A program made the position numbers and the translations under genes. Shown piece by piece: positions 38,944-64,000 of a stretch of DNA of 64,000 bases. The stretch comes from Alphaproteobacteria bacterium UBA3768. GTDB lineage: Bacteria > Pseudomonadota > Alphaproteobacteria > CAAHEQ01 > UBA3637. The number at the start of each line of letters is the position of its first letter. Positions within the stretch are counted from its first letter, which is position 1. Location of the stretch: NCBI GenBank assembly GCA_002372315.1, contig DFFU01000026.1:1230-65229 (forward strand), read 5' to 3'. Below the pieces are notes generated by a model. It worked only from the letters and a program-made list of their open reading frames with translations. It made no database searches and had not been told where the DNA came from.

Positions 38944-39013
38944 AAATGCTTATGGGTCAATGACTTATTTGAAGAAATGAAATAAGATATTTGACATAGA
39001 AAGGAGTAGAAAA

Positions 39014-40126: not shown

Positions 40127-40203
40127 ATCCAAAAAGTTGTATGTGGTTGGAGCAACTTAAAAGAAGTCCAACCAAGTAAATCTTACAGAAAAGGAGTAAA
40201 AAT

Positions 40204-40503: not shown

Positions 40504-40606
40504 AATTAGGCAGATACTGCCTATGCTATATGTGTAGGCAGTATCCTTTCTAAAAATTACATTTTTTAATCATAAATACATTTGTAGTGAAAAAGGAGAA
40601 AATAAT

Positions 40607-41185: not shown

Positions 41186-41633
41186 GAGTTTTTAACTCCA
41201 TATTCTTACAATATTCATCTTTGGCAATATACATAAAGTCCCAACCTAATAATTTTCTCTGTTTCTTATCTTCTGTTGAGTAAAAATCTTTGTATTGGTT
41301 CAATAATTCTTTTATTTCTGCTTTTAATTCATCACTTGCTTCATCATTGTCATCAACATAGGTATAGCAAGAGCATCCATTAACATCCAAATAATTGGGG
41401 TCTCCACCTAATTCAAGCAGATATTTAACACTATCTGCTTTTAATGTAAATTGGCAACATAGTTGAAGTAAAGAAGACAAGTTCATAGTAATGGGTTCAT
41501 TTATGTATTCTATGGTGCTTATAATCTCATCCATCTTTTTAGGATTACTCATAACATCTACCATATTCTTATATCTAATTTCTACATTTAAGTTGGCAGT
41601 TTTATTATTACCTAATATTTTAATTAAAAACAT
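41166..41633 (-). CDS. hypothetical protein with one ankyrin-like repeat
   Basis: LLQLCCQFTLKADSVKYLLELGGDPNYLDVNGCSCYTYV. Confidence 0.3.
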   Translation of the reverse strand: MFLIKILGNNKTANLNVEIRYKNMVDVMSNPKKMDEIISTIEYINEPITMNLSSLLQLCCQFTLKADSVKYLLELGGDPNYLDVNGCSCYTYVDDNDEASDELKAEIKELLNQYKDFYSTEDKKQRKLLGWDFMYIAKDEYCKNMELKTLNNILQ

Positions 41634-41712
41634 TTCAAACCTCTTTTCTATATCATAAATATTTATTAGTTTTAGGTTAAACTATGTAATTTTTTAACCT
41701 TTTAATACAGGT

Positions 41713-41857
41713 GGAAATGACTATTGCCACTTTTTTTGTAGAGGAAATGACTATTGCCACCATTCTTTGATATAGGAATCAGTATTACTCTCATTGAGAA
41801 TGAATGTTTCAATTATTGAAAATGAGTATTACCATTAGAGGAAATGAATATTGCCAC
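41713..41857. repeat. iteron-like array: 3 good plus 3 degenerate copies of an 18-bp repeat GGAAATGA(C/A)TATTGCCAC at 21-33 bp spacing
   Basis: Copies at 41713-41730, 41743-41760 and 41840-41857 are identical or differ at one position. Degenerate copies lie at 41776-41790, 41797-41815 and 41818-41836. Confidence 0.5.
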
Positions 41858-42313
41858 CCCATTTTGGGATATGCCTTATTTTATAAGGGGTTTGATGGTG
41901 TTTTTTCTTCCTATAATAGTATTATAATAGAATTAAAAAAGAACTATTATAATAGTTCTTTTTCTTCTTTTTGTATAATAGCAAACTTGTTTAATGGGGA
42001 ATAATAGAGGTAGTTAAATAAAGGGAGATTAAATAACCCAAATTAAACAAGCAAATAAGTTAGTCCAATTAAAAAGGAAAATAATATGGGGATATTAAAC
42101 AAGGGAAAATAATATAGGGGCATTAGTCAGGTAAAATAATGAAACTGGAATAATGGAAACTGGGTGATGTGGGGTTGTTCTGCTGGGGTAGTTTTTTTGT
42201 GAGGGGACACCTCTAAATGAGATAAATAGTTATGAGTAATTTTGAACTCTTTTTTCATTACAAACCCCACCATTTCTGGTGGGGATTTTTATGAAAAATA
42301 ATTAAAATATTTT

Positions 42314-42345
42314 TGACTTTCTATGGGTAAATATGGTATAATATA
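42314..42345 (+). promoter_or_regulatory. sigma70-like promoter TTGACT-18-TATAAT upstream of the restriction gene region
   Basis: tttgactttctatgggtaaatatggtataat. Confidence 0.4.
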
Positions 42346-42351
42346 AATACA

Positions 42352-42465
42352 ATAAAAGAGAAATAAAACATCATCTTTTTTTGTTTTATCTAATATAATT
42401 TTCATTGTCATAAAACCAAGTTAATTGTTTTACCTGCCAGTAAAATGGCAGGTTTTTAGTATTTT
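42352..42465 (+). ncRNA. candidate short transcript or leader (about 110 nt) ending in a Rho-independent terminator (CCTGCCA gtaaaa TGGCAGG + U-run at 42431-42465)
   Basis: A promoter immediately upstream and an intrinsic terminator about 105 nt before the restriction-gene ATG at 42573. A second hairpin+T-run (CCCCACC atttct GGTGGGG) at 42266-42295. Confidence 0.3.
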
Positions 42466-42572
42466 TTTATATGAGATGTCAAAATCTGCCATCCTAAAAA
42501 CTTTTTAGTTTGCTTTTTTTATCATAATAGTTTAACATATCCCAATGATTAAATCAACACAAGGGAGTTGTT

Positions 42573-47465: not shown

Positions 47466-48862
47466 TGGATATAAATGACTTTCTAACAGATTTACTTAAA
47501 AAAGATTTCAAAAAGAAATCTAAAGGAAAGTCAGCATCCAGTGCCATCAACGCCATTAAAACTGTATCAAGTCCTATGGAAGATAAGGATTATAAGTTAG
47601 ATAAGGCACAAGAAGAACTGTTTGACTTGATTGAAAACACCCATACAAATGTATTCATTCAAGGTCAGGCAGGAACAGGAAAATCAACTTTTATCAACCA
47701 CTTAAAGAAATATTCTGATAAAAGGATCAGAATTGTCTGTCCAACAGCAGTTGCTGCCATCAATGTTGGTGGAACAACCATACATTCTTTATTCAAATTA
47801 CCATTCTCTGATTTTTTTATCTTTGATGATCTATTAAAAGAAAAAAGACAGAAACTTAAATCCATCTTGAATAAGACAGATTTACTCATAATTGATGAAG
47901 TTTCTATGGTTAGACCAGATATGTTGGATATTATAGACCTGCTATCCAGACAAGCAAAAGGTAAGGATGAACCATTTGGTGGATTACAGATGCTTCTGAT
48001 AGGTGATTTATGCCAATTACCGCCAGTAATTAAATCCAATGCTTACCATATCTTTAAGGAAGCATATGGACATAGAAATCCATATTTCTTTGATGCCAAC
48101 TCTTATAAAGCAGGAAACTTTGAAAAAATTGAACTGACAAAGGTTTATAGACAATCTGACAAAGAATTATTGAAAAATCTTATCAGGGTTAGGGAAAACA
48201 AAGAGGTTGATGAAGCAGTTGAATACTTTAATACCTGTAAGATTGATGATGAAGATGTCCTCAATACTGCTATGACTATCACTCCTTATAAACAAGTAGC
48301 AGAAAACATCAACCAAAAGAGATTGGGAGAATTAGAAACTCCTGTTCATACTTATGTTTGCCAAACCAAAGGAACATTTGATGAAGCAAAGGAATGTCCT
48401 TCTCCCAGAGTTTTAACATTAAAAGAAGGTGCTTTGGTTATCTTTAATAAGAATAACCCACCGTCTTGGATAAATGGAACAAGTGGAATTATTGAGAAAT
48501 TGGAAGATGATGCTATTACTGTAAAGGTCTTAAAAACTGGTGAAAGTGTTGCTGTTAAAAGAGAAGAATGGAAAAGTTATCAGTATGATTATGACAGAGA
48601 AACAGGAACTGTTGTTGAAAAAGAAGTTGGGACATTTATTCAATTCCCATTACAACTGGGATATGCTCTGACTATTCATAAAGCACAAGGTAAAACTTTG
48701 GATAAAGTTGTAATAGACCTGAATAGAGGAGCATTTGCTCATGGTCAATTATATGTTGCTTTAAGTAGAACCAGAAAGAAAGCAGATATTCATTTAACTA
48801 AAAGAATTGATGTATCTGATATTATTATGGATGATAGAATTGTTGAGTTTATGGGGAAATAA
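47465..48862 (+). CDS. PIF1/RecD-like SF1B DNA helicase
   Basis: Walker A GQAGTGKST, Walker B LLIIDEVSMV, the PIF1 signature PFGGLQMLLIGDLCQLPPV, and C-terminal LTIHKAQGKTLDKVVIDL. The start codon overlaps the upstream stop (ATAATGG). Confidence 0.8.
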   Translation: MDINDFLTDLLKKDFKKKSKGKSASSAINAIKTVSSPMEDKDYKLDKAQEELFDLIENTHTNVFIQGQAGTGKSTFINHLKKYSDKRIRIVCPTAVAAINVGGTTIHSLFKLPFSDFFIFDDLLKEKRQKLKSILNKTDLLIIDEVSMVRPDMLDIIDLLSRQAKGKDEPFGGLQMLLIGDLCQLPPVIKSNAYHIFKEAYGHRNPYFFDANSYKAGNFEKIELTKVYRQSDKELLKNLIRVRENKEVDEAVEYFNTCKIDDEDVLNTAMTITPYKQVAENINQKRLGELETPVHTYVCQTKGTFDEAKECPSPRVLTLKEGALVIFNKNNPPSWINGTSGIIEKLEDDAITVKVLKTGESVAVKREEWKSYQYDYDRETGTVVEKEVGTFIQFPLQLGYALTIHKAQGKTLDKVVIDLNRGAFAHGQLYVALSRTRKKADIHLTKRIDVSDIIMDDRIVEFMGK

Positions 48863-48863
48863 G

Positions 48864-49676
48864 ATGCTAAAAGTTGGAACAAGAGAAGAAATTAAACAAT
48901 TCTTAAAGGAACATAATACAGGATTTTATGTGTATATCCTGTATCATCCAAACAAAACCCCATTCTATGTAGGTAAAGGAAAAGGAAAAGGAAATAGAGT
49001 ATTTCAGCATGAATATGAAGTAGAACATTCCCAGTATAATAATCCATATAAAATCAACACAATTAAAAAAATATACAGATTGGGGGGAACTGTTGGATAT
49101 GGTATTGACAATATCTTTGAACAGGAAGCAGATGCCTTTGCCAGAGAAAGAGAATTAGTAAAACAAATTGGGAGACCCCCATTAACCAATTTAACTGATG
49201 GAGGAGAAGGTGCTGTCAATTTAGACCTTATCTCAAAACAAAAACATAATGATACTCTTTGGGGAGATACTGGGGATAATCCAAGAAGTATTATAAACAG
49301 AACCTTCCAAGAATTAGCACCAGTAAAATCTGTGCCTATAAAACCACTCCAACAGTTCAAAGCAGTCCATCTAACTCCTCATCCAAAGGCAAGAAATTAT
49401 AGTCCAAGAGAAGCAGCAGCACTCTTTATCAGTTCTGTCTTTAATGGGGTTTTAATTGAAGAAGGAGCAATTATTCCAAGATTGGTCAATATCAAAGGGG
49501 TAGATGGAATTATAGAAAATGGAGTTGGAAGAGATATTTTAGTTGCTGGTTGGGCAACCATTATTCCAAATGATGACCCAACATTAGAACAATTCCAACT
49601 AACTAAAAGTGGTAAGGATGCTATCCAAAGATACATCAAGGATTTACCAAAAGAAGTGCTCAACAGGTATATGTAA
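48864..49676 (+). CDS. GIY-YIG nuclease domain protein
   Basis: N-terminus GFYVYILYHPNKTPFYVGKGKGKGNRVFQHEYE matches GIY...YIG...R...H spacing, and a Glu follows about 40 aa later (FEQEADAF). The ATG at 48864 comes right after the helicase stop; the track ORF begins at 48807. Confidence 0.65.
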   Translation: MLKVGTREEIKQFLKEHNTGFYVYILYHPNKTPFYVGKGKGKGNRVFQHEYEVEHSQYNNPYKINTIKKIYRLGGTVGYGIDNIFEQEADAFARERELVKQIGRPPLTNLTDGGEGAVNLDLISKQKHNDTLWGDTGDNPRSIINRTFQELAPVKSVPIKPLQQFKAVHLTPHPKARNYSPREAAALFISSVFNGVLIEEGAIIPRLVNIKGVDGIIENGVGRDILVAGWATIIPNDDPTLEQFQLTKSGKDAIQRYIKDLPKEVLNRYM

Positions 49677-49687
49677 AGGAGAATAAT

Positions 49688-49894
49688 ATGGGATTTTTTA
49701 GTGAATTATTTGGTGCTATTATGAACCAGAACAATAATTATGGAGATCAAAATTACCATAGAGGAGAACCCACAGCAGAAGATTACATTAGGTCTGGTGA
49801 AATAGAAAAAGACAACTATGATGATGGCAAAAGGAACACCATAGATGAGGATGGTGGTTTGTCTGATAGTTGGGACAAAGAGGATAGAGAATAA
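49688..49894 (+). CDS. small acidic hypothetical protein (68 aa)
   Basis: ORF with an SD (AAGGAGAA) directly after the GIY-YIG gene. Asp/Glu-rich. Confidence 0.3.
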   Translation: MGFFSELFGAIMNQNNNYGDQNYHRGEPTAEDYIRSGEIEKDNYDDGKRNTIDEDGGLSDSWDKEDRE

Positions 49895-50503
49895 TTAAAG
49901 GTTTCCTATCCCCACTTTCTTCAAATATCTACACATAGTTGTTGGATGAACTCCCATTATCTTGGATATTTTTGCTTGTGATATACCTTTATCAAGCAAT
50001 TTTTTTATCTTCTGTCTGCTCTTGGATAGTTTTAATTCTCTTGTCTTTGAACCCAATGGTCTTCCTAATTTTACATTCTGTTCTTTTAATTTATTTAATG
50101 CCATTCTAATTCTGGTGGAGATGTGGTCTCTTTCAATTTCAGCAGCAAGACCAAAGGTATATGCCATTATTTTGGATTGTAAATCATTCTTAAAGTTATA
50201 ATTCTCTTTAATACTGATAATTTTAATATCTTTATTAATAGCATCCTGTAAAATACCTGCCAGTTCATAAAGATTTCTTGCTAACCTACTAATCTCTGTA
50301 ATAATAATGGTATCCCCAGCAACTGCTGTTTCCATCAACTTACCTAATTCTCTTTTACTCAAAGGTTTTCTACTGCTAATGTTTTCCTCTATCCATCTAT
50401 CCACTTTAATCCTGTTGTTTTTAGCATATTCAACAATAGCAAAGTGTTGGTTGGAACAGGTTTGTTTCTTTTCCATAGAACACCTACAATATCCATAAAT
50501 CAT
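49895..50503 (-). CDS. serine recombinase (resolvase/invertase family)
   Basis: N-terminal catalytic domain IYGYCRCSMEKKQ (Ser nucleophile), the SRLARN motif, and a C-terminal HTH (ISQAKISKIMGVHPTTMCRYL). Confidence 0.85.
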   Translation of the reverse strand: MIYGYCRCSMEKKQTCSNQHFAIVEYAKNNRIKVDRWIEENISSRKPLSKRELGKLMETAVAGDTIIITEISRLARNLYELAGILQDAINKDIKIISIKENYNFKNDLQSKIMAYTFGLAAEIERDHISTRIRMALNKLKEQNVKLGRPLGSKTRELKLSKSRQKIKKLLDKGISQAKISKIMGVHPTTMCRYLKKVGIGNL

Positions 50504-50742
50504 AATTCACCTCTTTTTATTTTATTTATTGAAAATACAAGATTTTTTGTTGTAAGAAGTGTTAGCAAATAATCATTTGTTTTCTCAATGACTTATACAA
50601 TTCCTAATTACAACAAGATACAAATTGCCACATATTCCTTATTTTTCAATATATTCAATGGAATAATGAGGTGTTTTAGATACCTCTTTTTTATCTAAAA
50701 AAGTATTTGCTTTTTAACAAATGTTTTTGTAATATTCTGGGT

Positions 50743-51195
50743 ATGACTAAAACTTGTTGCTTTTTTGGTAATGCTACTATCTGGAATGTGAAGGAAATTG
50801 CTGATAAAATTAGGAAAGCAGTAGTTGATTTAATAACCAATAAGCAAGTTGATACTTTCTTGGTTGGGATTAAAGGTGAGTTTGAAACATTATCACATAA
50901 AATATTACAGGAAATAAGATTAGATTATCCAAATATTAAAATTATGCTGGTAATTGCTTATGAAAGAGACCTTCATAAATGTGGTTATCACTTTGATGAC
51001 TTTTATTATCCACCATTAGCAGAAGTTGGGTATAGGGGATGGAGCATTGCTAAAAGGAATGATTGGATTGTAGAACAAACAGATTATGTGATTGCTTGTA
51101 ATCAGTATCAAGGTAGAGCATACAACTATTGTAAAAAAGCAAAAAACAAAGGAAAAACCATTATTGAGATAGGAAAACAAGATGAACCTGTTTAA
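50743..51195 (+). CDS. SLOG-superfamily protein (DUF1273/YpsA-like)
   Basis: VDTFLVGIKGEFETLSHKILQEIRLDYPNIKIMLVIAYE ... DYVIAC ... KTIIEI matches the YpsA-like Rossmannoid pattern. Confidence 0.45.
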   Translation: MTKTCCFFGNATIWNVKEIADKIRKAVVDLITNKQVDTFLVGIKGEFETLSHKILQEIRLDYPNIKIMLVIAYERDLHKCGYHFDDFYYPPLAEVGYRGWSIAKRNDWIVEQTDYVIACNQYQGRAYNYCKKAKNKGKTIIEIGKQDEPV

Positions 51196-51364
51196 TTTTT
51201 TTAAGAAGAAACCTGAAAGCACATTAGATAAAGCATTAAAGGAAGTTGAAAGAGTTGGTAAGCAACAACCAGTAAAGGGAGTTGAGGCATTGGATGAATA
51301 TTTCAAAGCACATCCCTATAAAATGAAAAAGATAAAAAGTAAAAAAAGAACTAAAAAGCAATAA
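51182..51364 (+). CDS. small basic hypothetical protein (60 aa)
   Basis: ORF overlapping the end of the SLOG gene. Lys-rich C-terminus. Confidence 0.25.
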   Translation: MNLFNFFKKKPESTLDKALKEVERVGKQQPVKGVEALDEYFKAHPYKMKKIKSKKRTKKQ

Positions 51365-51412
51365 ATTACATCTTTTAACCAATAAATACTTATACCAACA
51401 AAGGATATAAGT

Positions 51413-51826
51413 ATGATGGATTATGATGATGTAGATATAGTGTTAGAAAACTTACCACTTTTATTACAAAATAAGGATAAGATATTAAATAATAAAACTT
51501 ATTCAAAATGTAAAATAAGAGGTTCAGGTATATTTTTTAAGAATAAAAACATCTATATTGGTTTTACATTAGGCAATTTGCTTAAATTATGGTCCAGTCC
51601 TTGTTCCTGTTGGAAGTTTAGTAAGTATTATACCTATAAGATGACCTTGTTTGGCAATGGTGAAGCAGATATATTCTCCAAAGCAGTTGATGGTTCTTAT
51701 CAGCAATCTTTAATAGATGGGGATTTAATTGTTCCACATATTGAAGATGCTGTAAGAATAGGTGAAATGGTGCTAATTCCAAAATGTATAGATGATGTAA
51801 TTAAAGAATTAAAGGAAAGTAGATGA
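51413..51826 (+). CDS. hypothetical protein
   Basis: 137-aa ORF whose stop overlaps the next start (ATGA). Confidence 0.4.
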   Translation: MMDYDDVDIVLENLPLLLQNKDKILNNKTYSKCKIRGSGIFFKNKNIYIGFTLGNLLKLWSSPCSCWKFSKYYTYKMTLFGNGEADIFSKAVDGSYQQSLIDGDLIVPHIEDAVRIGEMVLIPKCIDDVIKELKESR

Positions 51827-52257
51827 AATTTGATTTTAGTGAGATAAAGAAGTTTTTACAGGAAAAAGCAGATATTGCCAAAGTGGTATCTATATCACCA
51901 TCATTTGGTAGTGAATTTACCACAGATTTAAGTAATGCTACACTTATACCAAAGAAAAAAGAACCAACTATGAGTGATGAAGAACTACAATTCCTTGAAT
52001 TATGCCAAAAACTTTTAAGAAAACTTGGTTTCATAAAAACAAGTTATGACTTTTCAGAGCAATTCATGGGTAAGAGTAAGCATTATTATTCAATGCTTTT
52101 AAGTGAAGGTAGGCAATGTTCCATAGATGGATTACACAATTTAATTAAAAATATTGAAACATTGAATGATGTTCCTGCCACTTCATCAAAATATTTGGAT
52201 GATTTAATAGAAAAAGGAAATAAACTTTTAACCAAAAGGTTGCTGAAATACTTTTAA
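51823..52257 (+). CDS. hypothetical protein
   Basis: 144-aa ORF translationally coupled to 51413-51826. Confidence 0.4.
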   Translation: MKFDFSEIKKFLQEKADIAKVVSISPSFGSEFTTDLSNATLIPKKKEPTMSDEELQFLELCQKLLRKLGFIKTSYDFSEQFMGKSKHYYSMLLSEGRQCSIDGLHNLIKNIETLNDVPATSSKYLDDLIEKGNKLLTKRLLKYF

Positions 52258-52412
52258 TTTTACTTTTATTTTCAAAATTCTCATACAGCAACTTGGTTGT
52301 TCCTCATAATTCAATAATTATGGGGAATTTTTATTGTAAAATCAGAGTTTAGTTGGACCATACATAAAAAAAGTGTAAAAACAGAGTTAAATGTATTGAC
52401 AATTTTACAATT

Positions 52413-53015
52413 TTGCGATATTGTAATGCGACTTTTAAGAGTTCAAATTTACAAAAAAAGGAGCATTCAATGGATTTTGGGTATAAAAGAGTATCAACCA
52501 TAGACCAATCAACCGAAAGACAATTGGAAGGAATTAAACTGGACCGAGTTTTTGAAGATAAACTATCTGGTAAGGATAGGAATAGACCACAATTGGACTT
52601 GCTGTTGTCAATTTTAAGAGAAGGAGACACAATCCACATTCATAGTATGGATAGGTTAGCAAGGAACACCAGAGACCTACTCAATTTGGTGGAAGAAATT
52701 ACAGGAAAGAATTGTAAAGTCATCTTTCACACAGAACATCTGTCCTTTGAACCTAATAAAACAGACCCATACCAACAGTTGATGATGACAATGTTGGGAG
52801 CAGTAGCACAATTGGAGAGAAGTTTAATCCTTCAAAGACAGAAGGAGGGGATTGCCATTGCCAAGAGTAAAGGAAGATTTAAGGGAGGGAAAAGTAAGTT
52901 ATCAGCAGAACAGGTGCTGGAATTAAAGGAATTATCCAAAACCAACTCAATTACATCTCTGGCAAAAAAGTTTGGTATCACCAGACCTACTTGCTATGCT
53001 TATTTGAAAGGATAA
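52413..53015 (+). CDS. serine recombinase (resolvase/invertase, Hin/Gin-like)
   Basis: FGYKRVSTIDQ catalytic Ser, the DRLARN motif, and a C-terminal HTH (ITSLAKKFGITRPTCYAYL). Confidence 0.85.
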   Translation: MRYCNATFKSSNLQKKEHSMDFGYKRVSTIDQSTERQLEGIKLDRVFEDKLSGKDRNRPQLDLLLSILREGDTIHIHSMDRLARNTRDLLNLVEEITGKNCKVIFHTEHLSFEPNKTDPYQQLMMTMLGAVAQLERSLILQRQKEGIAIAKSKGRFKGGKSKLSAEQVLELKELSKTNSITSLAKKFGITRPTCYAYLKG

Positions 53016-53017
53016 TC

Positions 53018-53272
53018 TTATTGGCAGGTTAGTAGAAGGTATTTCTCTGTAATTACCTTTTCTCTTTCTTTGACTTCAAACTTAATGTGATGGTTCATAA
53101 ATGTAATCTCCCCAGATTTATGTTCCTTATCATCATCCTTAAAATCATTATAATTAGCAATTAGTTGTTCAAGTTGCCACATTTCCTTACTATTAAATAA
53201 AGGGAAATCTGGGGGTGAATAGACCTTTGTAAATTGTTTCCTAATCTTATCATTTTCTTTTGATGGTTTCAT
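53018..53272 (-). CDS. hypothetical protein (84 aa)
   Basis: ORF on the minus strand between a resolvase and the pentapeptide-repeat gene. Confidence 0.3.
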   Translation of the reverse strand: MKPSKENDKIRKQFTKVYSPPDFPLFNSKEMWQLEQLIANYNDFKDDDKEHKSGEITFMNHHIKFEVKEREKVITEKYLLLTCQ

Positions 53273-53385
53273 AAGAACCTCCTGTAAAGATTAGATATCA
53301 AAATCCCCCTAAAATAAAGCAGGGGGATGATATTTTCAGTGAATCCAATATAAATGTTGGAATATTTGAGATAATCTTGGATTAT

Positions 53386-54468
53386 TTAAGAATTTTTACA
53401 TTCTTCTTCAAATCTTCTTTTGAACTCCATTACTTCTGAAAGTGGATACTTCAAAGGTTTATGTCCTTTGTTGGATGGTGTTGGCATCCAAAGAAACTCA
53501 CCTTTCTCTGCTTTATGCTTTGCCAGTGTTTTTCTTTTCCTGAATGAAGCAGGACCAATTCCAACAATTTCACACATCTCTTTTTCCAACACCACATCTG
53601 GGATTAGATTAGGGGAAATCTGATTGTTTGAAGGAGGTAATCCCATCATCTTTCTTCTTTTTTCCATTTCCTCTGTTTCAGGTGGAAGAAGAGATTTATA
53701 TTTCATAACATTCTTTTGAACTTCTTTCATCATCTCTGACATTACATATAAATTAGAGTGTTCAAGACAATAGATGAACTCTTGTAATCCATCTATAAGT
53801 TCTTTTTCCATCTTATGTTCTTGATTATACCACCAATCAACATTGTAGAACAAACTTCTTAAACCAAACTTGACATCCCCAAATCTAAAACAACCAGAAA
53901 ACTTGGTATCTTGGCAATTAAAATCCAAACCATTGAGATGATAAAAACTTGTCATTCCTAAAAGTTCAGATTGCTTAAATGCTATTGTGCTATGGTATTC
54001 TTTATTTCCATTTCCACTAATTAGCACTTTTGAAAGAGCATTGGTTATAATGTTGTTGAAATCAGCATAACCATTAAAATCACAGGTATCCAAAGTCAAA
54101 TTGCCAGAAAACTTTGATTTATTAAAACTGAAATCACAATTAAAAGAGCATTCCTTAAAGGTAGTATTGCCATTAAAAGAGCAACCCTCAAATGTAAATG
54201 GAATATTACAATTTTTGTTTTTAATGTTCAAATCAGTAAAGTGGCAATTTTTGAATAAGATTTTGTTATAATTAGTGAGTTTATCAGTAAGACCTTCATA
54301 TTGACCACCTAATAAATCAGCAACTACTTTTGAGTTTGTTTTGAAATCTTTATTTTGAATAAAAAATAACTTCTTACTTTTCATAGATTGTCTTAAAGCA
54401 TCATACTCATCCCCTGTAAAAGTATCATCTTTTCTGCCTTCTGGTCTTTCTCTGATTATAACTGCCAT
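53386..54468 (-). CDS. pentapeptide-repeat protein fused to a C-terminal AlpA/MerR-like HTH-type domain
   Basis: The central region has F-centred pentapeptide repeats (GCSFN GNTTF KECSF NCDFS ... TCDFN). The C-terminus EIVGIGPASFRKRKTLAKHKAEKGEFLWMPTPSNKGHKPLKYPLSEVMEFK resembles an AlpA-type DNA-binding domain. Confidence 0.45.
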   Translation of the reverse strand: MAVIIRERPEGRKDDTFTGDEYDALRQSMKSKKLFFIQNKDFKTNSKVVADLLGGQYEGLTDKLTNYNKILFKNCHFTDLNIKNKNCNIPFTFEGCSFNGNTTFKECSFNCDFSFNKSKFSGNLTLDTCDFNGYADFNNIITNALSKVLISGNGNKEYHSTIAFKQSELLGMTSFYHLNGLDFNCQDTKFSGCFRFGDVKFGLRSLFYNVDWWYNQEHKMEKELIDGLQEFIYCLEHSNLYVMSEMMKEVQKNVMKYKSLLPPETEEMEKRRKMMGLPPSNNQISPNLIPDVVLEKEMCEIVGIGPASFRKRKTLAKHKAEKGEFLWMPTPSNKGHKPLKYPLSEVMEFKRRFEEECKNS

Positions 54469-54618
54469 AGTTGCCTCCTTTGAGCATTTTTATGGGTAGC
54501 ATTATACACCAAAATTACCTCCAAAAGCAATCCAAATGTTGAAAATATGTTGAAAAAAAATAGTCCAAAAGTTCATCACTTTTAGACCTCTTATAAGTTA
54601 TTGATTTTATTGAAAAAA

Positions 54619-54693
54619 TGGTGGGTGCGACAGGGATTGAACCTGTGACCCCTACCGTGTGAAGGTAATGCTCTCCCGCTGAGCTACGCACCC
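54619..54693 (-). tRNA. tRNA-Val (anticodon CAC), canonical copy (attR side)
   Basis: Revcomp GGGTGCGTAGCTCAGCGGGAGAGCATTACCTTCACACGGTAGGGGTCACAGGTTCAATCCCTGTCGCACCCACCA. Perfect acceptor stem. TTGACA-17-TAGAAT promoter upstream (revcomp of 54711-54739). Confidence 0.9.
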
Positions 54694-54747: not shown

Positions 54748-55251
54748 TTACCTTGATTGGTATTTTTTGTAAAATTTGTTTCCAGACAGTAAAACCAAAT
54801 CTTCTGCAGGTCCTATATAATGTCTAAAACCATCAATAATTTTTGTCCTAGGGCCGAATATTCCTTTTGAAAAGCCCTCAGGGGCTATTGAGGTACAAAA
54901 ACTTTTCAGGTAATACTCAACTAAATTGGGATAACTGCTGGCCCAAGCCGATAGAGCTGAAATTGTGCAAATAGCTTTCTTTACTTCTTTTGCTTTTTCC
55001 GGATGTGAAATCATTTTATCTAAGCATGAACGTAGCAATCCTAAAGAGGTGTATTGATAATTTAAGTGATAGTAAGTTTGAGTTTTTTTACACTTGTTAT
55101 TTCGTGATAAACTTCCGCCAACATAAATGGCCCTGATGATATCTTGTCTTTTTTCTGAACTTAATTCGGGACTTGATAAAGCAAAATCTTGTAATGTCAG
55201 CAAAGCCTGAGCAAACAATCTTTTTTTTAATATTTTATCTTTATAGCTCAT
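54748..55251 (-). CDS. hypothetical protein (167 aa)
   Basis: ORF translationally coupled to the upstream gene at 55253-55708. Confidence 0.4.
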   Translation of the reverse strand: MSYKDKILKKRLFAQALLTLQDFALSSPELSSEKRQDIIRAIYVGGSLSRNNKCKKTQTYYHLNYQYTSLGLLRSCLDKMISHPEKAKEVKKAICTISALSAWASSYPNLVEYYLKSFCTSIAPEGFSKGIFGPRTKIIDGFRHYIGPAEDLVLLSGNKFYKKYQSR

Positions 55252-55252
55252 T

Positions 55253-55708
55253 TTATATTTCCTTGTGGCTATATGTAAAAATGGAATAAAGTTGGGCTAA
55301 GGGCTCCTTCTTCCTGGGATTAGTAAATGTATCCTTTGGCCAATGGGCAAGTTCCGCTGGATACAATTCTTGGCAGAATTGATGGATTTGGCGCATGTGT
55401 GTTGGTCGGCATAATATCGCAACCGGAACGAAATCTTGGATAGCCTTCCCAAGATACTGTTGCCCCTTAAGACCCCAGTAAAGTTGATCATCTTTATCAT
55501 TATAAAAACGTTCAGATAAAGCACTCATCAGGTAATCTTCGGCTACTTTCTTATCCCCAAATTTTGCTTCTCTGATACCTTTAAGTAATTGCATAACTAA
55601 CATTTGTTTGGCATTTTCATTCCACTTGGTTGAAAAGTACTTAAAAGTATTTAATGCCTTATTAAAACGAATATTCATTTTCATGGAAGAGGGGGAACTT
55701 TGAGACAT
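55253..55708 (-). CDS. hypothetical protein (151 aa)
   Basis: First gene of a two-gene unit between tRNA-Asn and tRNA-Val. Confidence 0.4.
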   Translation of the reverse strand: MSQSSPSSMKMNIRFNKALNTFKYFSTKWNENAKQMLVMQLLKGIREAKFGDKKVAEDYLMSALSERFYNDKDDQLYWGLKGQQYLGKAIQDFVPVAILCRPTHMRQIHQFCQELYPAELAHWPKDTFTNPRKKEPLAQLYSIFTYSHKEI

Positions 55709-55907: not shown

Positions 55908-55982
55908 TGGAGGCCGGTACCGGAATCGAACCGATATAAAAGGATTTGCAGTCCTCTGCATAAGCCATTCTGCCAACCGGCC
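55908..55982 (-). tRNA. tRNA-Cys (anticodon GCA)
   Basis: Revcomp GGCCGGTTGGCAGAATGGCTTATGCAGAGGACTGCAAATCCTTTTATATCGGTTCGATTCCGGTACCGGCCTCCA. Confidence 0.9.
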
Positions 55983-56144
55983 ATCAAAAGATAACCCTAT
56001 ATTTACCCGATTTTTTTTATTAAGTCAAGTAAAAAAATAACTTTTTTACATTGAATGTTTTTACTTGCATTTTTTATGTGGTTATAATATAATCAGTATG
56101 CATTGATAGACAATTACAATATTCCTTTTTCAAATGGAGGGAAC

Positions 56145-59100
56145 ATGAGATATTCAAAAACAACCATCAAAGAATTGAACAGATTGTACCGCCATGTTTT
56201 AAAAAAATGTTTTATCTTAAATGTTTTTGGTATTTTATGGACGATGCCGACATATGCAGCTGATGATGTCATATTAAGTGATATTATAAATCAGCAAAAA
56301 ATTGTGTCGGATTCTGATGTTGCAAAAATTAATTCCGAAATTAACATTTATTCAACGAACGAAACTACACCATCTGCTTTACAAGCAAATCAAGTTGAAA
56401 TTTCTGGGAAATTAAATGTGGGAAATGGTTCTGATGCTACTTCTCAGACCCTTTCTAGCATAATTGTTCCAGAAGTGACAGTTTGGCATCATGATGAGCA
56501 TGTCAGTTATTGGAATTATGAACGTGGATCAATTAAAGTTTTATCTGGAGGAGAACTCAATTTAACGGCTACTGGGTTGAATTCTACAAAGATAACTGGT
56601 AGATCGGGCGAAGGCTTTGATTGGTATAACCCTGCTTTGGAGGTTAGTGAAGGGGCTATTTTGAACATAGAGGCATCAAATTTGCCGTCTGATGCTTATA
56701 ATGGTGATTCAGATTTTATAGATGATTGGAATATTGATTATGGTGTGTCTCTTCAAACTGCATCAGCTGTCATCAATGGGGCACTTAATATTACTGCTAC
56801 CGATAATTTAGTTCATTGGACAACAGGTCGTGAGGGTATAACGCTTGGGACAAATGCAATTTTTAATATAAATCTGAAAACTTCAGAAGTTCCGATGGAT
56901 TTAAAAATCCATGCGGGGGGAGCTTTTGTATCAGGTTCAAATTCAAAAATTAATTTGAATTCAAATTCTGCAATATCGGCAGATAGTGAAAGTTCTGATA
57001 TAGAGATTGGGGCAGCAAAAATTGATTTATCTGGGCAAATTGCGGCTATATCTTCTGATATTTCTTCAATTGCAGGATATGCAATAGAAGATGGTGGGGT
57101 TGTAATTCCGACAATCCAAATTGGGCATAATGAAAACCCCAGAAGCACATTGAATATGACCTTTTCTGATATGGGCATTATAGCAGCCACAGATCATTAT
57201 TATCAAATGATGGATGAAGAGGATAAAGAAGAACTTTTATCTGTTAAATCTAATCCTGAAATATTTTTGTCAGAGTTAAGAGGAACACTTTATATGATTA
57301 AGGGTGTTAAGTTGTCCGATGATGTTATGGTTTCTTCTGTGGCTGGTACACAAGAAAAATATGTTTGGGCTGAAAAACAGGAAAATGGTGAATGGCAAGA
57401 AACCCTATATGATAATAGCGCAGATGGATTTTGGGATAGAGTAAAAAATTATATCCAAAGCATGAACAATGACCAGTTGATTCAGATGAATGATAATCTT
57501 GTGACCGCTGTTCGTGGTTTTGAAACAGATGGTATTCATTTTGAAAATGCGGATGTTACCCTTGAAAACGGAGTTGAAGTAGCCAATAAATTATCGGGTG
57601 ACATTGTTGCTGACGAATCAAACATCACTTTAAATGGTTCTAATGAAGAAGAAGGACGTATTTTCTCAACTATTATTAATCATTCTGGTGCGACCGGTGA
57701 TATTGCTTTTAATGATTCAACTATTACGATGAATGACGATACATCCCTTGTACGTGGTATATATGAATGGGATGAAACTGTTGCTGATGGAATAGATGTT
57801 ATACAGCATAACTTGGGTATTGCCAGCTCTCAAGGGGATATCGGTTTTGATACTTCTACATTAAATATGAACGGAACTTCTTCGTTAGTTTTATCGGATA
57901 CGAATGGACGAATTGTCGCCAAAGATAATTCTATCATCAATATTAATGGTGACAATGTATTTTCTTTGAAAAATGTTATAGATGGGGAAGGTGCTGGTGC
58001 TGTTTTCTTGAAAGAATCGACTCTGAATATTGCCAAAGGAGCTTCCTTAACCTTAAATACTCAGTTAAAAGGATATATAGATGAGCATGGTAAGGAATGG
58101 GCACCAGCCATTCACGGGGATGCAGATTCTGTTATTAACTTAGAAGGGACATTGAAAGGCAGTGTTTCCACAGCTGGATTGTTGGCGTTCACGGATAAAG
58201 ATGCCTTTATTGATGGGGATATTTTATCTGTAGGAACATTAGATATTACACCTATTTCTGGTGAAATTAGTGATATTGTCAGTGGTCAGATTATAGGTGT
58301 TGATAATTTATCCTTAACAGGGAATAAAGAATATACATTGAACAAAGCCATATTTAGTACGTCTGATGACGATGTTGCTTATGTTATGTCGTCTGTCATC
58401 ATGGATAATTTTAAGCAAATTATGAAATTAACTTCCAATGAAAAAGAATACTACACCACTGATGGGCGAACAACCCTGACACCTATAGATAATCAAATGG
58501 GCGCACTTTCTGTGGTTGATGGGGCAACCTTATCTAGCGACAAAACATTTTATGCCGATTCGGTTGTTTTGGATAATGGTGCTTCACTGAATATGACAAA
58601 TATTTCAAGTATTGAAAATTTGACCATTAAAAATGGTTCTCAAGGGAAATTTAATTGTGCACTATCGGCTCATTCTGTTTTATTGGAAGGAAAAAATAGT
58701 GGTTTAGAGCTGGGGGGAACACCCCTGGATTTCAGCCTTATTTCAGGGACTTTTAGTGTTCTAAATGGGGCCACCCTAAAGACTGAGAATGGGCCTTCAT
58801 TCATGCTTGGTACTATAGTATTGGATCATGCAACATGGAATGGCAATAATATTGCAGAAGTTAACCTTGCTGAAATTTCATCTGATAACTCTGTTTTAAA
58901 TTTGAATAATTCAAAATTTTCTCATGGCCTAGAGACAGTGATGAATATTCGCAATTCTAAAGTGACTCTTTCCAATTCTGATTTTGGATTAGCTGAGACA
59001 AATTTTGATCATACAACTTTGGTATCCACAAACTCAGTGATTGGAAATCGTCCAATAACTCTTGTCAATGCGCGTTATCTCACAGATGAAGGTGATATTA

Positions 59101-62100
59101 TACCAGCATTTGCTGTTCTGGGGAGCGGCGAAGCCTTTGATTCCAAAATGCTCATCAAAAATAGCCATATCACTTTAAACGGCAATTCTGCTTTGGAAAG
59201 TTCTAGTATATTTAATGACTATCAGCTGGGAGCCATAGCTATTACACCTACTTATTTTAAAGAAAATGCTGCCAAATGGGTGGGAATGTTGAGTGAATCC
59301 CCTATGGACTGGATAGAGGATCCACAAGGGTATGTGGATGGGTTGACTACATTTGCAAATAACATTGAATTGGATAATACGACTATTATGCTGAATGGTA
59401 CCTCATCAATAATCAATAACTCATTGTCTTTGACGAATGCTGAAGGTGAAAGTACTGGTAATGTCAATTTGGTTGATTCTGAATTAAATGTCAATGGCAA
59501 TAATACGATCCGCACCACTGGTGTGGTCAATTTGGCAAACAGTACCTTAAATATTGCCCAAGGTTCAAAATTAACGCTTGAACGTAACGAGATAGAGGGA
59601 TCAGACGGGCTTGCCACTATTTATGGTGATGCTGATTCTGTTATTGATATCTCTGGAAGGTTAAATGGTAATGTCAATACACTAGGTGAATTAAAATTCT
59701 CAAGTGATACAGCATTTGTTAATGGGGATATTCAGGCCGCTGAATTAAATGTGGCAGATGGGACAACTTGGTCATTGGATAGAAGCAAAAGTTTTTCGGC
59801 CGACAAAATTAATATAGAGCGAGGAGGAACAATAGACATTATAGCCAAAAACAGAGATGCTAATTTATCGACAGAAGTCATTGATGTTGCTGGAACTTTA
59901 AATGTTGGAAATACCCAATCCGTCACACAGAAATTACTTTCTTCCATTGCGGGAACTGTAAACGTTCTTGATGGTGGGGTAATGAATCTAAATGCTACAG
60001 GAAATCAAAATACACGTTTTTCACATCAAAATGGAGTCAATGGAGAATTTTCTGAAAATAATCTTACAATAAATAAAGGTGGCCAATTCAATGTAGTTTC
60101 TTCAAATTTGCCAATAAACTATAATTCTTACAGTGGTGATGATACTGAAATAGGTGCTTTTTTAGAAACAGGGGATGTTTTGGCGAATGGGCAGATTCAT
60201 TTAGTGACAAATAACAATATAATCAACTGGCAAGCGAATAATTTTACTTTGGGTGAAACTGGAAAGTTGATTGTAATCAACAAAGATCCCAAAAAACAGG
60301 ATGTGGATATAAATATAAATGTTGGTAATTTTACCTCAGATAAAGGATCCGAAATTCAATTACTTTCAGATGAAACTGCTGATATTGGATTGACGGCGGA
60401 TACAATGAATCTGTCTGGGAATATTAAAATGAATAGTGCTTCCGCATTTGCTTTTGGGTCTTCTTTTAATGCTGATAATGCTCTAATTGATTTAACCTAT
60501 TCAGATATCGGAATGAATAGATATGCTGATAATTATTTTGATTTAATGGATGAAGAAAACCAAAGAGAAAGAATTCTACAGCTCAAGCAAAATATTGCAA
60601 ATGGGAATCTTTTATACGAAATTTATGGAATTTTATCTAAAAATTCGTCCGTTCGGATAACTGATAATCTTTCTGTTTCCCATAATTCTCAAACAGGACA
60701 ATACTCCTTCAATAATGAAGATCAAATGATGGAGTATAACGATTTTGAACAAGAACTACAAAAACGATTATCTTCGTTGAAATCTACTTCAAAATTAAAA
60801 CAATTGCATGACAATTTATTAGATTATAGAAGAGCAAGGATAGCAGATATGACAATCCGAAATTCAATTATAAATGCTGAATATGCTTCTGAAATATATA
60901 ATGAATTGTCTGGTGATATGAATATTTTATCATCAGAAATCAATTTGAAAAAAGGAAAAAAGTATACCTCTATCATAAATCATCAAGGGCGAATGGGGGA
61001 TATTTATTTTGGTAAAGATAATGATTCCATAAGATCAAGTTTAGTTAATTTGCATGACAATACTGGTATTATAAAGGGGTTGTTTTACTGGGATGAAAAG
61101 GGGATGAGATTATCTCCGAATGTGAAGGTATCTGAAGGGTCAATTATATTTGATAATAATTCAACATTGAACATGTATGGGACATCATATTTGGCGCTTT
61201 CTGACACAAATGGACGAATCGTTGCGAAAAATGGTTCAACCATTAATATAAATGGAAATAACACGTTTCATTTGATAAATTCTATACAAGGGAAAGGGGC
61301 TGGTTCTATTTTCTTGGGTGATGAAAGTGGTGATATAGATAATAAAACGACCTTAAATATTGCATCCAACAGTTCTTTGAGCCTTTTAACTCAGAATAAT
61401 GAGGGGTATAATGATGGAACAGAACAATACTTGCCCATTATTTATGGCTATGAAAATTCTGTTATAAATATAGCGGGAACATTAAAAGGTAGTGTATCCA
61501 CAGATGGATTGTTGAAATTTTCTAGTAAAAAGGCCAAAATAAATGGCGATATTTTAAAATTGGGAGCTTTGGAATTTGCTACTGCTGGTGGTGAGATCAG
61601 CAATTTTATTTCAGGTAAATTATATAACCTCAATGAACTTAATTTGGCGGGTAAAGATAGATATACTTTGAATAAAGGTGTATTTGCTGTCAACGATGAT
61701 GATATAGCATGCGAAATTTGGAACAGCGCTTATCCAAAAGAAAGGAATATTGTAAAGCTAACAGAAGGAGAATATAATAGTTTAATTGATCCCACATATA
61801 TGATAACTGATTTTAAATTGAAGCCAGTGGATAATCAATTCAAACTTATCTCATTAAAAGAGGGGGCTTCATTTTCAAGCAATAAATCACTTTATGCCGA
61901 TTCAGTAATTGTTGATAATGCAAATTTCATAATGACACAACCATTCGGATTTGAAAATTTGTCGTTGAACAATGATGCTAAAATGACTTTAACATCAAAT
62001 AATTCATATTTTCTATTTCCATTTCCATATACATCAGAGATTCATATGGATCATTCGACTTTGAATCTTACTTCTGCACTGATTGGGAATAATGTTATTT

Positions 62101-64000
62101 CTGCCCAAAATAACTCTATTTTAATGACAAAAAATACAGAGCTAACAGGATGGAATACCTTCAGTTTGGATAACTCTCAATGGACATCAAATAATGATGA
62201 TATAGGGATAAATTCACTTCAAATACATGATTCGGATTGGACAGATAATTCCAGTTTGATAATGCTTTCTCCTAATTCCAGTGAAAACTCTATAATAATT
62301 ACAGGACAATCCAATGTGACCTTAAATAATACAAGTACGGTGCGCAGAAATTATATGGGTAGTGGGACTGGAAGTGGTGGTGATAATTATACTAACAGTA
62401 TTCAAATTATGAATGAAGATAACAATCATCCACAAATCACCTTAAATAAAGGTACCGATTTTAATGCACTGAAATTCATGGCTACAGGAACAAAAATAAC
62501 AGCCAATGATGCCTCTTTTGGGGCAGGGGGGATAGCCATTTCAGAAACACTCCTTTCGCCCGAAATGAATGCTGCGATGGATTTAAAAGGACTCTCTCTG
62601 CTTTATAGTACTGCACCTTGGTCCCCAATTGATTTTAGTATTTATGATAGCAATTTAACTTTAAATGGTACTTCATCCTTAAAATTTTCCACAGGCTATG
62701 TACGTGGTGATTTGGTATCAGGAAAAGGAACCTATACGGATCTGACACCCGAGTATATGCGTAAGAATTATACTTATTTATTAAGGGAATTTAACAAGCG
62801 ATATGATGAAGATTTGGCAGAAAATTATATTGATGATTTGTATTCCAGTGCAAATGCCAATATAGATTTAGATAATACCCAAATCACCCTAAATGGTATT
62901 TCATCCATTATCAATGACTCTTTATCAACTGAAACAGAGAAGGGAAATGTAAATTTAACAAATGATTCCATTTTATTGGTAAAAGGTAAAAATACAATTC
63001 GTACCACGAAAGATGTGTATTTGAAGGATAGTACTTTGGATATTGCGAAAGGTGCAACTTTAACGGTTCAATCTGGTTACAATGAATCCAGAAATAAATA
63101 TATGGATGACACTATTTATTTGGATAATGCTATATTGAAACTTTCCGGAACTTTAAATGGTTCTTTAAAAGGGACAGTCAGCTCTTTAACGCTATCCTCT
63201 GGATTTAAATATACGGGTGATATTAATTTTGATAACAGCGAAATCAGCGGTTTTGGTGTGTCAGGTGTCACAAATGTAAGGGCCATTTTGCCAATTTTGG
63301 ATATGTATGAAGAAATGGGTGGAACTAGTATTCAAACATTTACAATGACTGATAGGTCTGCCCTTAATTTATCCACTATATCTGATTTAATTGGTAATGC
63401 CGATGAGATGAGAGTTGAAAATAATTCCACTTTAACTGTTGATGCGAATGCAGAATTAAACAGATTTATTGGCAAGTTATCCACAATCAAAATCAATAAA
63501 AATGTAGAAATGGATGTATCTGAGATTGATTTAAAAGATTCTTCATTAACAATAAATGGAGATATTTCAACCGCAAGTGGTGAAACATACATAAATACCA
63601 ATTCATTGACAATGGATAATTCTAATAAGCCTCAAGCGATGAGTCTCACACTTTCAAATGCAGGTATATTTGTTGAAAATGGTGATGTAAATTTAAAAAA
63701 TACGAATTTAAATATTTTAGGTAGTGCCAGAAATATGGATCCAACGGCATTAGAAGCAGAAGGGGAACTTCGTATTTTTAATGATCCCAATACAAGGGCT
63801 ACAATAAATATTTCTAATGCAGATATTGCGGCTTCAAATATAGCATTAACAAATACCTCATTACTCATGTCAGGGAGTATAGACAAATATACGAAAGAAC
63901 CAATGAATGGTGTAGCAACAAATGAACTGTCTATTGATAATTCAGGAAATAACAGAGCACAGATATCGTTATCAAGGTTATATATTGATGGGAACACAAA
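56145..64000 (+). CDS. giant secreted repeat protein, autotransporter/adhesin-like (>2618 aa in window, 3' end beyond window)
   Basis: The ATG at 56145 follows a GGAGGG SD and the reading frame stays open to the window end. The N-terminus MRYSKTTIKELNRLYRHVLKKCFILNVFGILWTMPTYAADD resembles an extended signal peptide region (ESPR, N-x-x-YR motif). Repeats of the TLNGTSS / INGNNT / DNxTIxLNG type are typical of beta-helical passenger domains, and there is a large internal duplication. Confidence 0.65.
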   Translation, partial: MRYSKTTIKELNRLYRHVLKKCFILNVFGILWTMPTYAADDVILSDIINQQKIVSDSDVAKINSEINIYSTNETTPSALQANQVEISGKLNVGNGSDATSQTLSSIIVPEVTVWHHDEHVSYWNYERGSIKVLSGGELNLTATGLNSTKITGRSGEGFDWYNPALEVSEGAILNIEASNLPSDAYNGDSDFIDDWNIDYGVSLQTASAVINGALNITATDNLVHWTTGREGITLGTNAIFNINLKTSEVPMDLKIHAGGAFVSGSNSKINLNSNSAISADSESSDIEIGAAKIDLSGQIAAISSDISSIAGYAIEDGGVVIPTIQIGHNENPRSTLNMTFSDMGIIAATDHYYQMMDEEDKEELLSVKSNPEIFLSELRGTLYMIKGVKLSDDVMVSSVAGTQEKYVWAEKQENGEWQETLYDNSADGFWDRVKNYIQSMNNDQLIQMNDNLVTAVRGFETDGIHFENADVTLENGVEVANKLSGDIVADESNITLNGSNEEEGRIFSTIINHSGATGDIAFNDSTITMNDDTSLVRGIYEWDETVADGIDVIQHNLGIASSQGDIGFDTSTLNMNGTSSLVLSDTNGRIVAKDNSIININGDNVFSLKNVIDGEGAGAVFLKESTLNIAKGASLTLNTQLKGYIDEHGKEWAPAIHGDADSVINLEGTLKGSVSTAGLLAFTDKDAFIDGDILSVGTLDITPISGEISDIVSGQIIGVDNLSLTGNKEYTLNKAIFSTSDDDVAYVMSSVIMDNFKQIMKLTSNEKEYYTTDGRTTLTPIDNQMGALSVVDGATLSSDKTFYADSVVLDNGASLNMTNISSIENLTIKNGSQGKFNCALSAHSVLLEGKNSGLELGGTPLDFSLISGTFSVLNGATLKTENGPSFMLGTIVLDHATWNGNNIAEVNLAEISSDNSVLNLNNSKFSHGLETVMNIRNSKVTLSNSDFGLAETNFDHTTLVSTNSVIGNRPITLVNARYLTDEGDIIPAFAVLGSGEAFDSKMLIKNSHITLNGNSALESSSIFNDYQLGAIAITPTYFKENAAKWVGMLSESPMDWIEDPQGYVDGLTTFANNIELDNTTIMLNGTSSIINNSLSLTNAEGESTGNVNLVDSELNVNGNNTIRTTGVVNLANSTLNIAQGSKLTLERNEIEGSDGLATIYGDADSVIDISGRLNGNVNTLGELKFSSDTAFVNGDIQAAELNVADGTTWSLDRSKSFSADKINIERGGTIDIIAKNRDANLSTEVIDVAGTLNVGNTQSVTQKLLSSIAGTVNVLDGGVMNLNATGNQNTRFSHQNGVNGEFSENNLTINKGGQFNVVSSNLPINYNSYSGDDTEIGAFLETGDVLANGQIHLVTNNNIINWQANNFTLGETGKLIVINKDPKKQDVDININVGNFTSDKGSEIQLLSDETADIGLTADTMNLSGNIKMNSASAFAFGSSFNADNALIDLTYSDIGMNRYADNYFDLMDEENQRERILQLKQNIANGNLLYEIYGILSKNSSVRITDNLSVSHNSQTGQYSFNNEDQMMEYNDFEQELQKRLSSLKSTSKLKQLHDNLLDYRRARIADMTIRNSIINAEYASEIYNELSGDMNILSSEINLKKGKKYTSIINHQGRMGDIYFGKDNDSIRSSLVNLHDNTGIIKGLFYWDEKGMRLSPNVKVSEGSIIFDNNSTLNMYGTSYLALSDTNGRIVAKNGSTININGNNTFHLINSIQGKGAGSIFLGDESGDIDNKTTLNIASNSSLSLLTQNNEGYNDGTEQYLPIIYGYENSVINIAGTLKGSVSTDGLLKFSSKKAKINGDILKLGALEFATAGGEISNFISGKLYNLNELNLAGKDRYTLNKGVFAVNDDDIACEIWNSAYPKERNIVKLTEGEYNSLIDPTYMITDFKLKPVDNQFKLISLKEGASFSSNKSLYADSVIVDNANFIMTQPFGFENLSLNNDAKMTLTSNNSYFLFPFPYTSEIHMDHSTLNLTSALIGNNVISAQNNSILMTKNTELTGWNTFSLDNSQWTSNNDDIGINSLQIHDSDWTDNSSLIMLSPNSSENSIIITGQSNVTLNNTSTVRRNYMGSGTGSGGDNYTNSIQIMNEDNNHPQITLNKGTDFNALKFMATGTKITANDASFGAGGIAISETLLSPEMNAAMDLKGLSLLYSTAPWSPIDFSIYDSNLTLNGTSSLKFSTGYVRGDLVSGKGTYTDLTPEYMRKNYTYLLREFNKRYDEDLAENYIDDLYSSANANIDLDNTQITLNGISSIINDSLSTETEKGNVNLTNDSILLVKGKNTIRTTKDVYLKDSTLDIAKGATLTVQSGYNESRNKYMDDTIYLDNAILKLSGTLNGSLKGTVSSLTLSSGFKYTGDINFDNSEISGFGVSGVTNVRAILPILDMYEEMGGTSIQTFTMTDRSALNLSTISDLIGNADEMRVENNSTLTVDANAELNRFIGKLSTIKINKNVEMDVSEIDLKDSSLTINGDISTASGETYINTNSLTMDNSNKPQAMSLTLSNAGIFVENGDVNLKNTNLNILGSARNMDPTALEAEGELRIFNDPNTRATINISNADIAASNIALTNTSLLMSGSIDKYTKEPMNGVATNELSIDNSGNNRAQISLSRLYIDGNT

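Follow-up and report, generated by a model that had tools for sequence, protein, structure and literature searches.

Among autotransporters of similar size, Fap2 of Fusobacterium nucleatum has 2,905 residues and forms a 47-nm rod that binds Gal-GalNAc and TIGIT; the fusobacterial proteins possess an N-terminal groove-filling segment and a 'matchstick' tip that have been described as Fusobacteriales-restricted (PMC12397386). BmaC of Brucella, a monomeric autotransporter of 340 kDa, has a signal peptide of 72 aa as well as PATR repeats and adheres to fibronectin and epithelial cells (PMC7697752). Signal sequences with an extended signal peptide region (ESPR) exceed 50 residues and include a conserved 25-residue extension (PMC8151025; PMC2805444). 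We have analysed a stretch of 64,000 nt from the contig DFFU01000026.1 of Alphaproteobacteria bacterium UBA3768 (the window), whose end is occupied by the beginning of a giant gene encoding the protein P0001. The joint best explanation of our data, to which we assign a probability of about 85%, is that this open frame constitutes the 5′ three-quarters of a type Va autotransporter gene from an uncultured alphaproteobacterium of the gut, encoding a beta-helical rod which arose by ancient hierarchical duplication and whose likeliest role is that of an adhesin or spacer.

The gene and its secretion class

The frame that begins with the ATG at 56145 continues on the plus strand to the window end at 64000 through 2,618 codons free of stops, the nearest in-frame stop upstream of the ATG being located at 56085-56087, and every antisense open reading frame (ORF) within 56145-64000 spans 125 aa or fewer; an earlier note on this DNA had described both the open frame and the shortness of the antisense ORFs. 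The protein database contained a single 100% match to the part encoded in the window, P0001 itself, a full-length protein of 3,416 aa and 371 kDa whose gene of 10,251 nt lies at positions 10001-20251 of contig L001 (window coordinates equal those of L001 plus 46144). The gene occurs on contigs L001-L003, from three samples, as well as on a fourth metagenome contig, L087, which was retrieved with a degenerate DNA pattern made by hand for GTTKSDFDVYTY and represents the sole extra copy, from the same strain. The DNA of the four contigs and of the window is mutually 100% identical across the gene together with as much as 10 kb of its flanks, and neither a frameshift nor a stop, which the earlier note had named as evidence against its reading, interrupts the 3,416 codons in any of the four assemblies. 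The datasets of L001, L002, L003 and L087 are ERZ12302850, SRR5322936, SRR873606 and AUXO016092456, and their DNA matches that of the window at 100% for as much as 20 kb; such identity suggests one clone present in several samples, or related or re-used samples.

It is the C-terminus, encoded beyond the window, that bears most directly on the mode of secretion. PF03797 matched residues 3155-3386 (E=7.6e-40, 137.7 bits, cut-off 26), TIGR01414 was recognised as well (E=5e-30, 104.9 bits, cut-off 16), and the protein terminates at residue 3416 in KYHF, with the aromatic terminal residue of the outer-membrane-protein beta-signal. Pfam searches returned no match in P0001 to the two-partner secretion (TPS) domain PF05860 or to the YadA-like anchor PF03895 of trimeric (type Vc) autotransporters, the anchor being PF03797, and no TpsB-type (Omp85/POTRA) gene was present among the genes up to 10 kb on either side. 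Since the barrel lies in cis and the TPS domain, the YadA anchor and a nearby TpsB gene are all lacking, P0001 is, by its sequence, an autotransporter of the classical (type Va) class, ordinary in kind and with a near-orphan sequence. The examination of downstream sequence for a translocator, as the earlier note had proposed, recovered a C-terminal beta-barrel in the same polypeptide, so that of the two secretion routes it had offered the autotransporter stands and two-partner secretion falls. The passenger gave no Pfam match to peptidase S6/S8 or GDSL lipase, the domains of SPATE and other enzymatic autotransporters, and the PDB sequence search was likewise empty; AIDA repeats and PATR were without a Pfam or NCBIfam match at E<=1-10, and no other passenger domain (protease, lipase and similar) emerged from the Pfam, NCBIfam and PDB sequence searches.

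The N-terminus of P0001, MRYSKTTIKELNRLYRHVLKK-CFILNVFGILWTM-PTYA/ADD, displays the features of a Sec-type signal peptide: a basic n-region of 21 aa with seven K/R, one hydrophobic core only, of 13 aa (residues 22-34), and an A-x-A-like cleavage site, PTYA/A, with cleavage probable after residue 38. The string NRLYR, on which an ESPR-type signal had been proposed, is indeed found at residues 12-16. However, the ESPR family PF13018 matched neither the whole protein nor the isolated N-terminal 70 aa, even at E<=10, and the closest relative of P0001, the protein P0002 introduced below, reads THAYR at the same position. Both N-termini share the motif SKTT-x2-EL-x3-YR-x2-LKKCF-x-LN, and a regular expression derived from it (SKTT..EL...YR..LKK) recovered P0001 and P0002 only among ~3 million residues translated from related loci. 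Because PF13018 has no match, the signal peptide measures only ~38 aa with a single core and NRLYR is not kept in the closest relative, the extension is best taken as a family-specific n-region, longer than usual, and not as an ESPR; that part of the earlier description is not supported.

Established knowledge of type Va secretion, together with the domains found, would outline the following route. The Sec signal peptide, with its unusually long basic n-region, would take the precursor over the inner membrane, the C-terminal ~300 residues would enter the outer membrane as the autotransporter beta-barrel, and the passenger of ~3,000 residues would thread outward and fold as a long right-handed beta-helical rod with short alpha-helical inserts. 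P0001 would accordingly be displayed on the cell surface.

The duplicated passenger and its predicted fold

Segment-wise self-BLASTP of the translated window frame revealed a colinear duplication, with E-values down to 2e-39 and matching segments that cover residues ~79-1225 and ~1241-2360, in which residues ~79-1240 correspond to residues ~1241-2365 at an offset of 1,100-1,165 aa (3.3-3.5 kb), giving a module length of ~1,150 aa; under global alignment the two modules are identical at 38% of aa positions. This super-repeat lies far beyond chance. The duplication of a module of more than 1,000 aa, and with it the interpretation as a giant secreted repeat protein, was thus well founded in the earlier note, and the blocks named there are the best-conserved islands of the module: 57858-58262 against 61164-61562, at 58% aa (73/125) and 74% nt identity, and 59379-59582 against 62859-63071, at 64% aa and 75% nt identity. 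The 'about 70% identity' previously given for these blocks holds for the DNA (74-75%), the corresponding protein values being lower (58-64%).

The most conserved part of the module is a sub-repeat of ~145 aa, the A block. A hidden Markov model (HMM) built from the four P0001 copies found exactly four strong copies in the protein, two per module (Table 1), and in the model of module 2 a helical insert precedes every A block. Two A blocks per module, the module itself being doubled, make the repeat hierarchical. The rod would have grown accordingly in nested steps, a unit of helical insert plus A block occurring twice in each module and the module twice in the protein. As a side observation, residues 1166-1208 (window 59640-59768, inside A-block 2) gave a Bactofilin match (PF04519) of 26.9 bits, below the gathering threshold of 27.9, and P0002 gives a comparable weak match. 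Bactofilin is itself a beta-helix. The match probably reflects convergent similarity between beta-helix repeats, and a Bactofilin identity for the A-block region was dropped.

Table 1. Positions of the features of the autotransporter gene and of its surroundings (window coordinates unless L001 is indicated)
Feature	Position	Strand	Remarks
Autotransporter gene, 5′ part	56145..64000	+	first 2,618 of 3,416 codons; cut by the window edge, with 2,395 nt (797 codons + stop codon) beyond
Sigma-70-like promoter candidate	56060..56088	+	TTTACT-17-TATAAT, ~57 nt 5′ of the start codon; weak, consensus match only (L001 9916-9944)
Shine-Dalgarno sequence	56136..56141	+	GGAGGG, 3 nt ahead of the ATG; read from the sequence
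Signal peptide, ~38 aa	56145..56258	+	n-region, h-region CFILNVFGILWTM, c-region PTYA, then ADD
Super-repeat module 1	56379..59864	+	residues ~79-1240; 38% identity to module 2
Super-repeat module 2	59865..63239	+	residues ~1241-2365; beta-helical by prediction, carrying two helical inserts
A-block copy 1	57780..58223	+	residues 546-693; i-E 3e-59
A-block copy 2	59310..59747	+	residues 1056-1201; i-E 7e-63
A-block copy 3	61089..61553	+	residues 1649-1803; i-E 5e-56
A-block copy 4	62802..63239	+	residues 2220-2365; i-E 1e-62
Alpha-helical insert, module 2	60552..60833	+	residues ~1470-1563, just 5′ of A-block 3; DSSP helices at module residues 230-259 and 291-323
Second, shorter helical insert, module 2	62748..62846	+	residues ~2202-2234, just 5′ of A-block 4; DSSP helices at module residues 962-994
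Non-duplicated C-terminal passenger, start	63240..64000	+	beyond the window: beta-helix to ~3040, helical linker, beta-barrel 3155-3386
Inverted three-gene block and autotransporter junction	55908-64000; L001 20251-22380		by comparison with L004 and L014
ORFs without a Pfam family	8404-9603; 19727-21019; 54748-55708; L001 20676-21813	-; -; -; +

The AlphaFold2 model of module 2, obtained from a 4-row alignment, reached a predicted local distance difference test score (pLDDT) of 75.3 and a predicted template modelling score (pTM) of 0.64, and is composed of short strands plus two helical inserts. At the start of the first insert the motif Y..MDEE(D/N)..E.L..K.N is common to modules 1 and 2 and to P0002; a second relative, P0003, has the degenerate form FYGLDPDDKREVL at the corresponding position. 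A weak DUF1104 match was also noted at residues 1525-1596. In the model of the C-terminal part (residues 2401-3416, pLDDT 65), ~620 residues appear as confident beta-helix. The structural neighbours, with their listed values, were UpaB (19.1), Vag8 (17.9), EtpA (17.9), Pertactin (17.7), TibA (17.3), VacA p55 (16.0), Ag43 (15.9) and Fap2 (15.3), and Foldseek ranked them in the same order. The passenger is therefore predicted by the models to fold as a right-handed beta-helix, which is typical, though not obligatory, for type Va proteins.

Relatives, alternative explanations and probable role

An exhaustive HMMER search with module 1 as query against 1.84 billion cluster representatives, which constitutes the meaningful homology search of this work, yielded two relatives only, P0002 (2,206 aa, E=3e-84) and P0003 (1,366 aa, E=3e-7), so that the detectable family comprises three members among ~15 billion predicted proteins. 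PF03797 is present in both relatives, which are autotransporters of metagenomic origin, and each of the three proteins forms a singleton 90% cluster. P0002 is colinear with residues 1439-3416 of P0001, at 42% identity over 2,059 aa, and resembles it in the N-terminal motif, the A blocks, the helical insert and the barrel; it differs in being shorter by 1,210 aa, the equivalent of one module, and in a genomic context where it adjoins a HigB toxin and a large serine recombinase in DNA of 40% GC. The A-block HMM counted four copies in P0001, two in the single module of P0002 and one in P0003, the last figure being a lower bound as the N-terminus of this protein is incomplete; the series of 1, 2 and 4 blocks would indicate stepwise doubling. 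The gene call for P0003 (contig L088, 1-120) has a non-ATG start 17 codons past an in-frame stop, near the contig start, and lacks a signal peptide, and the gene may be truncated or frameshifted. Other searches added nothing further: a word-index protein search recovered only itself for the 2,618-aa fragment, nothing for the 4-row module alignment and no candidate for the two N-termini, results of little weight because the N/S/T-rich composition apparently swamped the prefilter; a genome-contig scan with module 1 found no relative, and a metagenome-contig scan with the P0001/P0002 alignment found nothing, the patterns chosen for it being poor.

Two other accounts of the gene deserve attention before its age and function are considered. 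P0001 could be envisaged as the TpsA exoprotein of a two-partner (type Vb) system, with an ESPR-type signal peptide and a separate TpsB channel, and indeed it is a giant beta-helical repeat protein, its signal peptide is longer than usual and the TPS proteins EtpA, HxuA and FHA appear among its structural neighbours; nevertheless, with an autotransporter barrel of its own in cis, PF05860 and PF13018 both unmatched and no Omp85/POTRA gene within 10 kb on either side, this account is already refuted and keeps practically no chance of being right. Alternatively, the long ORF might be a pseudogene remnant or an artefact of repeat assembly, as the gene does not occur at the syntenic site in the nearest species. 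Such an origin is extremely unlikely, given an intact frame of 10,251 nt equipped with a Shine-Dalgarno sequence, a signal peptide, a complete barrel and a terminal Phe, a sequence identical in four independent assemblies, and repeat copies too diverged for mis-assembly.

A functional autotransporter gene being favoured, the super-repeat might still act as a contingency locus, in which recombination between modules makes the copy number vary from strain to strain, as the earlier note had supposed in calling it a recombination hotspot. Its relatives do differ by whole modules, with 1, 2 and 4 A blocks in 1,366, 2,206 and 3,416 aa, and module gain or loss must therefore have occurred in evolution. 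Homologous recombination dependent on RecA requires roughly 25 nt of identity or more, yet within the gene no exact direct repeat whose copies lie 100 nt or more apart is longer than 16 nt, and the blastn alignments between the module copies are limited to 161 nt (71%) and 61 nt (75%). No length variant was found in the four identical assemblies or in the 90% cluster of P0001, the other family members being singletons as well. Hence an active contingency locus is very unlikely and the hotspot proposal does not hold; as the module copies are now only 38% identical in protein, the sequences indicate that the duplication is ancient and fixed. In a quartet analysis that set the P0002 module and P0003 beside modules 1 and 2, the three topologies received 17, 11 and 10 informative sites, and the duplication is old whether it occurred before or after the split of P0001 and P0002. 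As for function, the passenger could instead be an enzyme or toxin, either a glycan-degrading or glycan-binding beta-helix of the pectate-lyase-fold or tailspike-like kind or an effector that is cleaved and released. Lyases and tailspikes have the same beta-helix fold, but the top-ranked structural neighbours are non-enzymatic autotransporter passengers, Pfam and NCBIfam detected no catalytic family, and sequence identity to all such structural matches is 5-15%, a matter of shared fold only; we consider an enzyme or toxin unlikely, although a carbohydrate-active beta-helix is the foremost alternative to an adhesin.

Within the overall type Va model, it is rather probable that P0001 would serve as a long surface adhesin or spacer, this being our best guess because no catalytic domain was found, the fold is nearest to adhesins and the size is like that of Fap2 and BmaC. 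The helical inserts and the A blocks represent candidate binding sites. Several observations weigh against the interpretation as a type Va autotransporter with a beta-helical adhesin passenger. The signal-peptide cleavage site is a by-eye call from the sequence. The Pertactin autochaperone PF03212, a common though non-defining feature, gave no match at E<=10, and none of the adhesin-repeat families of Pfam was detected in P0001. Foldseek returned no E-value of 1e-3 or lower for the structural neighbours, and at the end of the C-terminal model the helical linker and the ~12 long strands that follow it both have pLDDT <50.

Compared with passengers of the UpaB, pertactin, Vag8, TibA and Ag43/AIDA-I type, P0001 is 4-8 times longer, bears no sequence similarity to them (no AIDA, PATR, Pertactin or PDB matches) and, according to the model, has a beta-helix broken by alpha-helical inserts. 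The giant adhesins Fap2 and RadD of F. nucleatum belong to another phylum, with no sequence relation detected, and the two-module super-repeat is a property of P0001 that has not been so described for Fap2. Like BmaC, P0001 is a giant type Va autotransporter of the Alphaproteobacteria, but its signal peptide is of ~38 aa, PATR is not matched and no sequence similarity was detected. A more far-reaching proposal, which we advance only tentatively and regard as less probable than not, is that the passenger represents a new adhesin family, an extremely narrow one, in uncultured alphaproteobacteria of the gut, with the helical inserts (Y..MDEED) acting as receptor-binding domains, length attained by module doubling, and the gene recently acquired, along with a local inversion, at a site flanked by tRNAs. 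If this were true, the gene could confer on one strain a host- or cell-cell-attachment trait that is absent in the sister species.

Uncultured gut Alphaproteobacteria are known almost only as metagenome-assembled genomes (MAGs). A surface rod of 371 kDa in one lineage, missing at the same site in the sister species, would be a plausible colonisation determinant, making P0001 a candidate for surface-display or adhesion assays. Likewise, the series of 1, 2 and 4 blocks could offer a natural example of how giant autotransporter rods lengthen by duplication of whole modules. In other respects P0001 is ordinary, with a canonical secretion system and a repeat that is old and not dynamic.

Genomic setting

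The housekeeping genes of the window are proteobacterial in type, including RpoD with a sigma-70 non-essential region, PBP2, AspS and others, and PheT in the downstream flank matched MAGs of uncultured Alphaproteobacteria from the guts of humans, the Hadza and ruminants, with 84% identity for the best match. Among the 80 related loci fetched, not one codes for a protein related to the autotransporter. The two closest species, L004 and L014, have no autotransporter here and share the colinear order tRNA-Val, p151, tRNA-Asn, tRNA-Cys, QueH, p131, p228, PheT and PheS; with respect to this arrangement the downstream p228-p131-QueH block is inverted in our lineage, and the 10.25-kb gene has tRNA-Cys on one side and p228 on the other. 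Since the gene is missing at the syntenic site of both species and the locus is rearranged, these comparisons of sequence point to lineage-specific acquisition or retention of the gene, at a site that is rearranged and flanked by tRNAs. A search around the gene for an invertible segment, or for inverted repeats on its flanks, gave only chance-level AT-rich matches, none of which explains the inversion; a foreign base composition was not seen either, the gene having 34.1% GC and the backbone 36%.

Several medium-sized ORFs without a Pfam family were also observed, namely those of 399 aa and 430 aa, p167 and p151 (between tRNAs), as well as the downstream neighbours of the autotransporter, p228 and p131. 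Three of them, p151, p228 and p131, are kept in both closest relatives and p167 in L014 only, and as these relatives lack the autotransporter none of the four would be its partner.

Elsewhere in the window, an integrative island of ~17.5 kb (37126-54693) lies between two minus-strand copies of tRNA-Val(cac), identical at 72 of 75 positions with a 56-nt identical part. It contains a tyrosine integrase (37648-38943), a 1,630-aa Type ISP/IIG restriction-modification enzyme (42573-47465), a PIF1/RecD-like helicase, a GIY-YIG protein, two small serine recombinases and a pentapeptide-repeat protein, and at its position L004 and L014 carry a single tRNA-Val.

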